Assembly (NCBI GenBank): GCA_009845995.1
Contig: VXYK01000046.1
Coordinates: 95,547-159,546 of the forward strand
Direction: 5' to 3'
Origin: Acidimicrobiaceae bacterium
GTDB taxonomy: Bacteria; Actinomycetota; Acidimicrobiia; Acidimicrobiales; Aldehydirespiratoraceae
Length of the DNA stretch: 64,000 nt
Shown: positions 48,158 through 49,411 of the stretch, piece by piece
Numbering within the stretch: the stretch's first letter is position 1
Layout of the letters: each line of letters begins with the position of its first letter
Translations under genes and position numbers: made by a program
Notes under the pieces: generated by a model
Told to the model about the DNA's origin: nothing
The model's input: the letters and a program-made list of their open reading frames with translations, nothing else
Databases searched by the model: none

Positions 48158-49411
48158 TCACTCGGGGCGCCGAGCGACGGCAAGCTGGCCAGCGAAAGCT
48201 GTGTTGAGCACACTGCGCCGGGTGGTTTCGATCTGTTCCAACGCAGTCGAGAGCACATAATCAGTCGCGTCTAGCCGGGAGAAGTGCTCCTCAATCGCCG
48301 AAACGATCCTTTCTCGTTCGCGGCTTGGCGCAAGCACGAACGGAACACTCGCCATTCGTTTCTTCGAGATCTCCTTGAACGTCGTTCCGCTGGCCATTTC
48401 ACGGATAGCAGGCGTTGCGTAACGAAGATACCAATAAACATACCGTGAGCCGATCCCTTCGGGAGGGATAAGGCTCTTGAATCCTTGGTTCGTACATAGA
48501 GGCTGAGCCGCGATCGCGGCATAGCCAATCGGCGCCCGCGATGAGAACAGCACCGCACCCTTTGGCAATAGATGTGTGGAGGTCGATTCGTAACCAGTCA
48601 AGGTGATTGTGCGACGCCCTCGCGCTATCTCGACTCCGTCATGATTAGAGAGGTCTTCTGGTGTCACCCATGGAATCTCACCGCCCCAAAAAACTGGCTC
48701 TTTGGTCCTTGGTGTTGCGCCGCCCACAATCTCGAAGATCTTGCCGAGTGTTGTTAGGGTCCAGCCTCGGGGGAGGTCACTCGGTGTGTGTGTGTGTGTG
48801 TGTGGCTCGTCGTCAGCGTCTTGACGTACAAGCTGGCCGGTGAACGCTGCGTTCAGCACGCTACGCCGGGTCACCTCGATTCGGTCTAACGCGGTTGAGA
48901 TCGAATCCTCAGCCGCGTCGAGGTGGGAGAAGTGCTCTTCGATTGTGGCGACTATTCGTTCCTGCTCAGCGAGCGGTGGCACCTCCAGGGCATAGTGGCG
49001 CATTTGACGCCACTTGAGGCGAGGCCGGTCGCCTGTGCTTCTCCTCTGAGCGAACTTGACAAACCTCGAACTCAAGAGTTGGTACTGAAGGAATTTCGGC
49101 ACGAGTGCCTGCGATGGCGGCAAGACGATTAGCTCGGCCGAACCGAGCGCTTCACGGTCGACCCTAGCGACCTTGTTTAGGTACGGACGCAAACGTGCGT
49201 AGGCGATGTCTCCGGGCGACAGTTCAACCGATTGCGATCGGTAGTCGCTCGCGCATTCCCATCCGTCGATACGACCTACCTCACCAGCGATGTTATCGAG
49301 CGAGAGGTAGGGGCGCGCGTCATCCTCTGCCGGAACGACCTTGCCCACTCTTGGAGTACACAGATCGCCAAGATGAGCTATCACCCAGCCGGGGGGTAGG
49401 TCGGTGGTCAT
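48158..49411 (-). CDS. hsdS: Type I restriction-modification system specificity subunit (two TRDs)
   Basis: LPPGWVIAHLGDL... and LPRGWTLTTLGKIFEIVGG... start the two TRDs. The conserved helices are duplicated: EQERIVATIEEHFSHLDAAE...TRRSVLNAAFTGQL and ERERIVSAIEEHFSRLDATD...TRRSVLNTAFAGQL. Confidence 0.9.
   Translation of the reverse strand: MTTDLPPGWVIAHLGDLCTPRVGKVVPAEDDARPYLSLDNIAGEVGRIDGWECASDYRSQSVELSPGDIAYARLRPYLNKVARVDREALGSAELIVLPPSQALVPKFLQYQLLSSRFVKFAQRRSTGDRPRLKWRQMRHYALEVPPLAEQERIVATIEEHFSHLDAAEDSISTALDRIEVTRRSVLNAAFTGQLVRQDADDEPHTHTHTPSDLPRGWTLTTLGKIFEIVGGATPRTKEPVFWGGEIPWVTPEDLSNHDGVEIARGRRTITLTGYESTSTHLLPKGAVLFSSRAPIGYAAIAAQPLCTNQGFKSLIPPEGIGSRYVYWYLRYATPAIREMASGTTFKEISKKRMASVPFVLAPSRERERIVSAIEEHFSRLDATDYVLSTALEQIETTRRSVLNTAFAGQLAVARRPE
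48784..48804. repeat. (GT)10G / (CA)n dinucleotide microsatellite inside hsdS
   Basis: The plus strand reads gtgtgtgtgtgtgtgtgtgtg (21 nt). On the coding strand it reads CCA CAC ACA CAC ACA CAC ACA CCG, encoding P-H-T-H-T-H-T-P between the central conserved helix and TRD2. Confidence 0.95.

Follow-up and report, generated by a model that had tools for sequence, protein, structure and literature searches.

Simple sequence repeats (SSRs) are found in 7.8% of the hsdS genes in REBASE, which encode the specificity subunits of type I restriction-modification (R-M) systems, and they always lie between the two target recognition domains (TRDs), just after the coiled coil (PMC7383803). Atack et al. 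propose that such genes switch between full-length and truncated HsdS, as has been demonstrated for the poly-G tract of NgoAV; hsdS genes containing AG[n] are known in the Mycoplasmataceae, and the main text of the survey names no actinobacterial genus (PMC7383803). Here we analyze a CA dinucleotide tract in an hsdS gene of an uncultured actinobacterium (Acidimicrobiaceae bacterium, assembly GCA_009845995.1), taking as the window a 64,000-nt stretch of its contig VXYK01000046.1 (positions 95,547 to 159,546 of the forward strand). From the gene, its natural alleles and the other tracts of the genome and its relatives, we arrive at a probability of about 0.7 that the tract is a hypermutable SSR that switches this type I specificity gene between full and half HsdS forms.

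The hsdS gene occupies positions 48158–49411 of the window on the minus strand and encodes a 417-aa type I specificity subunit. The Pfam family PF01420 (Methylase_S, E=4e-29) matches it in two stretches, covering both halves of the product, and the solved HsdS structures that it matches are 1YF2, 3OKG and 5YBB. The span 48784–48804 reads exactly gtgtgtgtgtgtgtgtgtgtg; in the sense of the gene (minus strand) it is a (CA)10C tract, GT on the plus strand, and it encodes the peptide P-H-T-H-T-H-T-P, residues 203–210 of HsdS, with ...TRRSVLNAAFTGQLVRQDADDEP before it and SDLPRGWTLTTLGKIF... after it. According to Tandem Repeats Finder the tract has period 2, 10.5 copies and 100% matches, and it is the sole period-2 array in the window. 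The initial annotation, made from the sequence alone, had given the position and sequence of the tract, its location in hsdS and its peptide context correctly in every particular, and its statement that no comparable dinucleotide run occurs in the 64 kb holds. Under a model of independent, identically distributed letters with the genome's base frequencies, about 2e-6 runs like the (GT)10.5 tract are expected in the window; for runs of at least 18 nt in the 3.26-Mb genome, 0.0037 are expected and 6 are seen. The tract is pure, lies inside the open reading frame (ORF), has a 2-nt unit that is not a multiple of 3, and falls among the dinucleotide repeats of at least five units that the survey counts. 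The two regions coding for the conserved helices of hsdS have a DNA identity of 68% (117 of 173 aligned columns), in agreement with an earlier estimate of about 70%; this likeness is the ordinary internal duplication of hsdS genes.

We rebuilt hsdS in silico with 6 to 19 CA units, and the predicted product is full length at n = 7, 10, 13, 16 and 19, that is, where n mod 3 = 1. When n is divisible by 3, translation ends at a TGA stop (48777–48779, minus strand), one codon past the tract (...HT-E*), and when n mod 3 = 2 it ends at a TAA stop (48754–48756, minus strand) after a 9-residue tail (...H-RVTSPEAGP*). Both alternative frames retain TRD1 and the whole central helix, stop within 1–9 codons and give a product of about 210–220 aa. 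The model preceded the discovery of the natural alleles, and its sizes of 421 and 214 aa and both of its C-terminal endings match them.

Four tract lengths, n = 8, 10, 15 and 16 (17, 21, 31 and 33 nt), occur among public assemblies of this species. The n = 10 allele (21 nt, in frame, 417 aa) is that of the window and of the Logan contigs of runs X1–X3. The n = 16 allele (33 nt, in frame) is present in L021, from the NCBI metagenome-assembled genome (MAG) GCA_009835385.1, and in L001, from the European Nucleotide Archive (SAMN12347681); its product, P0127, is full length with five HT repeats (421 aa). At n = 15 (31 nt; L019, SAMN12347673, and L020, SAMN12347687) the gene is out of frame and encodes the 214-aa protein P0129, whose C-terminus ...DADDEPHTHTHTHTHTE (...HTHTHTHTHTE*) is the modeled n = 15 product and uses the TGA stop. 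At n = 8 (17 nt; L022, a Logan contig of SRR9841430, ORF 193–843) it is again out of frame, and the product ends ...HTHTHRVTSPEAGP* at the TAA stop; owing to a different TRD1, its length is 216 aa and not 217. The seven members of the 90%-identity HsdS protein cluster include P0127, P0129 and P0130, the last being a 169-aa TRD2 remnant called from an internal GTG. Changes of one or two units had been predicted to truncate HsdS after TRD1, and natural truncated alleles of this kind exist.

The in-frame and out-of-frame alleles lie on practically identical backgrounds. Over 6,645 nt, L019 (n = 15) and L021 (n = 16) differ by 0 mismatches and one 2-nt gap, which falls in the tract, and each has 1 mismatch from the window over 6.6–7.3 kb. 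The L022 contig (n = 8) shows 7 mismatches over 3.1 kb, and its TRD1 has been exchanged for an unrelated TRD; conservation covers the first nine residues, the central helix, the tract and TRD2. Since TRD1 has been swapped wholesale, the L022 sequence indicates that the locus also diversifies by allelic TRD exchange between strains. The occurrence of n = 8, 10, 15 and 16 in near-identical strains supports a hypermutable tract. The initial annotation had called the tract prone to slippage and a candidate switch, and had suggested a comparison of hsdS across related genomes and MAGs; the length variation among closely related strains, with both frames on identical backgrounds, supports it on both counts.

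Could these length differences have arisen in sequencing or assembly, as artefacts of a low-complexity stretch? Short-read assembly can collapse SSRs, as Atack et al. caution (PMC7383803). Among the six DNA runs with a 'sponge metagenome' source that were examined as Logan contigs, k=31 contigs do break at tracts of at least 30 nt. Those of run X4 break at the hsdS tract, where the contig on either side runs on for 9 extra GT letters, which gives a tract of at least 30 nt; in X5, a 97%-identical relative from another study, a contig also ends in the tract at this position, and X6 returned mostly unrelated GT microsatellites. Contig L001 is moreover chimeric 53 nt upstream of the tract (L001:5880-5985), with poly-C and a Nextera mosaic-end-like 14-mer, 'TGTATAAGAGACAG', and beyond the join it continues into DNA without a match in this genome. 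Only the tract length was used from L001, and P0007 (246 aa, 96% identical, TRD2 only), a candidate natural truncation, was rejected as an artefact of this chimeric contig. Joint Genome Institute (JGI) metagenomes, scanned for the left flank followed by (CA)8, yielded no matches. Against an artefactual origin, n = 10 recurs in three runs and the genome assembly, n = 15 in two samples and n = 16 in two independent assemblies; the n = 8 allele lies in a unitig well below k, tracts of 17–33 nt are far shorter than typical Illumina reads, and other tracts of the same genome differ consistently between the same samples. We consider an artefactual origin highly improbable.

We used an AlphaFold2 (AF2) model of HsdS, built on 22 sequences and with a mean predicted local distance difference test (pLDDT) score of 89.2, to place the tract within the protein. 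All of the following elements are encoded on the minus strand. In the model TRD1 spans residues 1–146 (48974–49411) and is followed by the central conserved helix, H147-190 (48842–48973), which is retained in the truncated alleles. An inter-domain linker without secondary structure carries the tract (residues 191–217; 48761–48841), and after it come TRD2 (residues 218–362; 48326–48760; best Pfam stretch 214–378), which is absent from the out-of-frame products, and the distal conserved helix, H363-406 (48194–48325). The tract thus falls in the stretch between the TRDs that immediately follows the central coiled-coil region; this region ends at residue 190, and TRD2 starts at residue 218. TRD2 itself has 75–81% identity to the TRD1 of HsdS proteins from related sponge Acidimicrobiales.

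The initial annotation had also suggested that gaining or losing HT dipeptides could alter the TRD spacing. EcoR124I and EcoR124II provide the precedent: their number of TAEL repeats (12 bp, in frame, inside the coiled-coil helix) shifts the recognition-site spacer from N6 to N7. Under this alternative, in-frame changes of 3 units would shift the distance between the TRDs and with it the spacer length, and two in-frame linker lengths do exist, HTx3 (417 aa) and HTx5 (421 aa). In the AF2 model, however, the HT peptide lies past the end of the central helix rather than in the coiled coil, and pLDDT falls below 50 internally only at residues 203–210, exactly the tract-encoded peptide. The tract linker aligns to the loop FPHPGADLPPGW that follows the central helix in 5YBB and 3OKG, and linker lengths from about 8 to 50 residues are tolerated there in the closest homologues; of the 54 closest HsdS homologues that were read, none outside the species' own cluster has an HT repeat. 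Because of the modeled disorder, the loop in the aligned structures and the variable linkers of homologues, we place the tract in a predicted disordered and tolerant loop, outside the coiled coil that sets TRD spacing. We therefore rejected the spacer ruler on the structure model, and we give it very little credence.

Returning to the switch between full and half HsdS, we propose the following sequence of events. Replication slippage would add or remove CA units. Where n mod 3 = 1, the gene would yield the full two-TRD HsdS with a slightly longer or shorter HT loop, a change that is probably neutral, and in the other frames it would yield a half-HsdS consisting of TRD1 and the whole central helix. 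By analogy with NgoAV and the truncated EcoDXXI HsdS, two half-HsdS may pair through this helix, and the dimer, joined by HsdM and HsdR, would recognize a symmetric site composed of the TRD1 half-site. Instead of simply going on and off, the locus would toggle between two restriction and methylation specificities.

The partners that such a dimer would need are encoded in the window. The minus strand carries an intact hsdR (965 aa; 50174–53071; ResIII, Helicase_C, EcoEI_R_C and HSDR_N) and an intact hsdM (492 aa; 44103–45581; N6_Mtase, E=2e-65, and HsdM_N), so that both cognate subunits have full domain sets. The order on this strand is hsdR, two small ORFs, hsdS and a small membrane ORF, then a plus-strand Phd/PIN pair, and finally hsdM; the membrane ORF and the Phd/PIN pair thus separate hsdS from hsdM, and the neighbours of hsdS also include a retropepsin-like gene pair. 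The same hsd gene order is present in L001, L019 and L021.

The genome (G000) consists of 71 contigs, has 61% GC and is 95.5% complete. The names of its close protein matches and the 'sponge metagenome' source of the runs place it among the sponge-associated Acidimicrobiales. Its R-M load, spread over contigs including C55, C26, C45, C35 and C39, is unusually heavy: the hsdS loci number at least six, and the Eco57I methylase motif occurs in nine genes. At two contig ends of the assembly stand poly-G runs, G50 and G15 (G000 C24:84099-84148, C21:15358-15400), which are most likely sequencing artefacts of two-colour chemistry left in the assembly.

We now turn to the other dinucleotide tracts of this genome, whose length distribution is bimodal: 227 runs have 4 units and 8 have 5, none has 6–8, and 6 have 9–17. 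Of runs of at least 10 nt the genome has 14 where about 66 would be expected, a depletion of about 5-fold. Defence genes contain or adjoin the six long tracts, most of which lie in R-M genes; besides the hsdS tract, three of the five others lie in methyltransferase-bearing R-M genes, and a fourth in the apparent 3' end of one of those genes. At the other tracts that could be scored, run X4 differs from X1–X3 in 4 of 4 cases, with flanks nearly free of single-nucleotide differences.

An (AG)12 tract at L002:3961-3984 (G000 C14:3961-3984) lies in a type ISP-like gene that fuses helicase_C to an N6-methyltransferase (NPPF); the product is cut to 1056 aa at the present n = 12, and only n = 8, 11, 14 and so on would give the full length of about 1271 aa. 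From 49 nt before the tract, the X4 sequence of this gene gives way to unrelated DNA, a sign that its C-terminal module may have been replaced. A second (AG)12 tract (L003:3873-3896; G000 C54:143372-143395) divides an Eco57I/MmeI-type (NPPY) methyltransferase gene between two ORFs, of 436 and 726 aa, that stand in different frames, and the gene would be continuous (about 1095 aa) only at n = 10, 13, 16 and so on; X4 has at least 31 nt here compared with 24 in X1–X3, and a nearby mosaic region of about 100 nt also differs. A compound GA/11-mer tract (L004:4967-5007; G000 C54:166467-166507; GA part 4967-4984) lies in a second Eco57I-family (NPPW) gene, which stops at 1029 aa in this genome and in X1–X3. 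An 11-nt deletion in X4 restores an ORF of at least 1170 aa that runs to the contig end, a predicted ON/OFF difference between near-identical strains. The (CT)10 tract (L005:3212-3231; G000 C31:70211-70230) sits near the 3' end of an ORF without a Pfam match, whose homologous counterpart in the relatives L012 and L013 is the C-terminal part of their Eco57I-like genes; contig C31 probably continues the second Eco57I-type gene, which is cut off at the end of C54. X4 has (CT)12 here, and the C-terminal tail is altered, from 263 to 235 aa. The longest dinucleotide tract of the genome, (TC)17 (L006:2412-2445; G000 C37:2412-2445), is intergenic; it lies 33 nt past a gene with Prok-E2_A and ThiF domains (E2/E1-like) and ahead of the 3' end of a convergent short-chain dehydrogenase-like gene.

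These tracts bear on a different explanation of the hsdS alleles, namely that a neutral microsatellite occupies a tolerant loop and that its out-of-frame alleles are ordinary loss-of-function mutations, through which the type I system is inactivated or starts to decay, with no second specificity. Several of the other R-M genes described above are already out of frame at their tracts, which can equally be read as decay. However, a neutral process does not sit well with a genome that is depleted of runs of at least 10 nt and yet keeps its six long tracts in or beside defence genes. If R-M genes are assumed to make up 2.5% of the genome, the chance of finding 4 of 6 tracts in them is about 6e-6, and of finding 5 of 6 about 6e-8, a count that includes the (CT)10 gene, assigned by its similarity to Eco57I-like genes of relatives. 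Nor does decay account easily for a frameshift that leaves exactly the TRD1-plus-helix module, with stops close behind the tract in both frames, or for in-frame and out-of-frame alleles that both persist on identical backgrounds.

The repair background of the organism is relevant to both explanations. A MutS_V domain was not found in G000, and NucS is present (C62:17832-18194). NucS-type repair does not act on indel loops. Without MutS, and with a repair of the NucS type that is blind to indels, slippage products probably persist, and we infer that the organism leaves slippage loops in long tracts unrepaired. Unrepaired slippage would account for the avoidance of repeats in general as well as for the instability of the few tracts that remain. 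It also favours neutrality in one respect: in an organism without indel repair, long tracts would vary regardless of selection.

Long tracts recur in the R-M genes of related genomes, again at odds with a neutral origin. Of 40 relatives, 7 carry tracts of at least (CA)9 and 13 carry tracts of at least (AG)9, the latter including 10 of the 17 genomes of the same genus; the ORF assignments given here cover the sampled tracts. Type ISP enzymes contain a long AG or CA tract in six related genomes (L034, and L031, L033, L035, L007 and L011, with the tract at 1501 in each of these five). In four of them, or five by eye, it lies near position 110 of the Type_ISP_C (Pfam) profile, that is, at the same place of the specificity domain, even though the unit is AG in some species and CA in others. 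Other tract-bearing ORFs include two Eco57I/MmeI-type methylases, one hsdM, an N6_N4 methylase-HNH gene adjoining an IS1595 transposase, and an EcoRI-methylase homologue with two tracts. Five further genes have no Pfam match; two of these resemble, by eye, the 3' part of the second Eco57I-type gene. Outside R-M genes, long CA and AG tracts stand at the 5' ends of two secreted proteins with DUF5122 (beta-propeller) repeats (L009:1501-1533, L026:1501-1532; G013), the classic arrangement of phase-variable surface proteins.

A wider reading follows, on which our confidence is evenly divided: the hsdS tract would be one element of a genus-wide repertoire of contingency loci through which every cell lineage within a sponge would have its own, stochastically reshuffled set of active restriction specificities and methylomes, a form of bet-hedging and possibly a phasevarion. 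On this reading AG and CA tracts would be kept specifically in R-M genes (hsdS, hsdM, type ISP, type IIG enzymes of the Eco57I/MmeI type and the EcoRI-methylase homologue) and in a few secreted proteins, in genomes that otherwise avoid repeats and lack indel repair. If true, this would amount to combinatorial anti-phage bet-hedging in an uncultured, high-GC animal symbiont.

Several points weigh against a switch at hsdS. The other five hsdS genes of G000 carry no SSR, and in other species of the genus no tract was found at the orthologous hsdS junction, where only the DNA of the conserved helices matches. Because of these two absences the tract is judged to be young, and it could be a transient mutational accident; its restriction to this species is also what a neutral microsatellite would show. 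The alleles were all read from consensus assemblies, as Logan contigs in the case of the runs. Some samples may overlap, and one sample seems to lie behind both the L001 and the L021 assembly. Tracts of 31–33 nt can be misjudged in short-read assembly, yet n = 15 and n = 16 were each recovered twice. Finally, the activity of the truncated HsdS is assumed by analogy. Weighing these points together with the placement of the tracts, their recurrence in relatives and the alleles in both frames, we hold the neutral explanation to be unlikely and retain the switch between full and half HsdS as our preferred reading, in which the dimerization of half-HsdS, the slippage and an adaptive role would all have a part.

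The architecture of an SSR between two TRDs was already known, and switches of this kind occur in pathogens; it is found here in an uncultured actinobacterial sponge symbiont. The same device has, in this case, alleles for both expression states in nature and a host without MutS or MutL, and it is not isolated, as most long dinucleotide tracts of the genome and of the genus lie in R-M genes. For that reason, stochastic diversification of restriction barriers and methylomes may be a general strategy in dense, phage-rich symbiont communities. Many 'frameshifted pseudogenes' among the defence genes of MAGs may be phase-OFF alleles, and strain-resolved metagenomics should treat such tracts as fast-evolving markers. 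The searchable open-access literature yielded no account of such a switch for sponge symbionts, Acidimicrobiia or type ISP enzymes, and phase-variable restriction by the last of these seems not to have been described before. The remark in the initial annotation that such switches are rarely described applies to Actinomycetota; it does not extend to the architecture, given its share of the hsdS genes in REBASE (7.8%; PMC7383803).

The locus differs from an SpnD39III-type shufflon (silent hsdS copies, inverted repeats, recombinase): it has no silent copies, and all Methylase_S matches at the locus belong to this one gene. It shares with EcoR124I and EcoR124II a change of repeat number in the middle of hsdS; in contrast to their in-frame repeat within a helix, the unit here has 2 bp and lies in a predicted disordered loop after the helix. 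An actinobacterial parallel is the Pgl/BREX system of Streptomyces coelicolor, in which pglX undergoes phase variation at a G-tract. Both are SSR frameshift switches, putative in our case, in an actinobacterial defence methyltransferase system, and the Eco57I-like genes with AG tracts in this genome are likewise comparable with pglX; the present gene, however, encodes a type I specificity subunit outside the pglX family, and its tract is a dinucleotide rather than a homopolymer. For EcoDXXI, Meister et al. reportedly showed in 1993 that a Tn5-truncated HsdS acts as a half-HsdS dimer that recognizes a palindromic site. The n = 15 and n = 8 alleles likewise encode TRD1 and the central conserved region, although the EcoDXXI truncation was a laboratory transposon insertion, whereas ours is a natural and potentially reversible frameshift.

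The Mycoplasmataceae AG[n] genes and the REBASE hsdS genes with SSRs resemble our gene in having a tract between the TRDs, a dinucleotide one in the case of AG[n]. The phylum and lifestyle differ, and for our gene both frames are represented by alleles on identical genomic backgrounds. The closest counterpart is NgoAV of Neisseria gonorrhoeae, in which an SSR likewise lies between TRD1 with the central helix and TRD2, its length sets whether HsdS is full or truncated, and the truncated form retains TRD1 and the coiled-coil helix. NgoAV has a homopolymer (poly-G) where our gene has 8–16 units of a CA dinucleotide, and our host, an uncultured sponge symbiont from the Acidimicrobiia, has a high GC content (61%) and lacks MutS. 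Two specificities have been shown experimentally for NgoAV and are proposed for the present hsdS; at the sequence level, the tract agrees in every defining feature with the NgoAV-type class of hsdS genes with an SSR between their TRDs.

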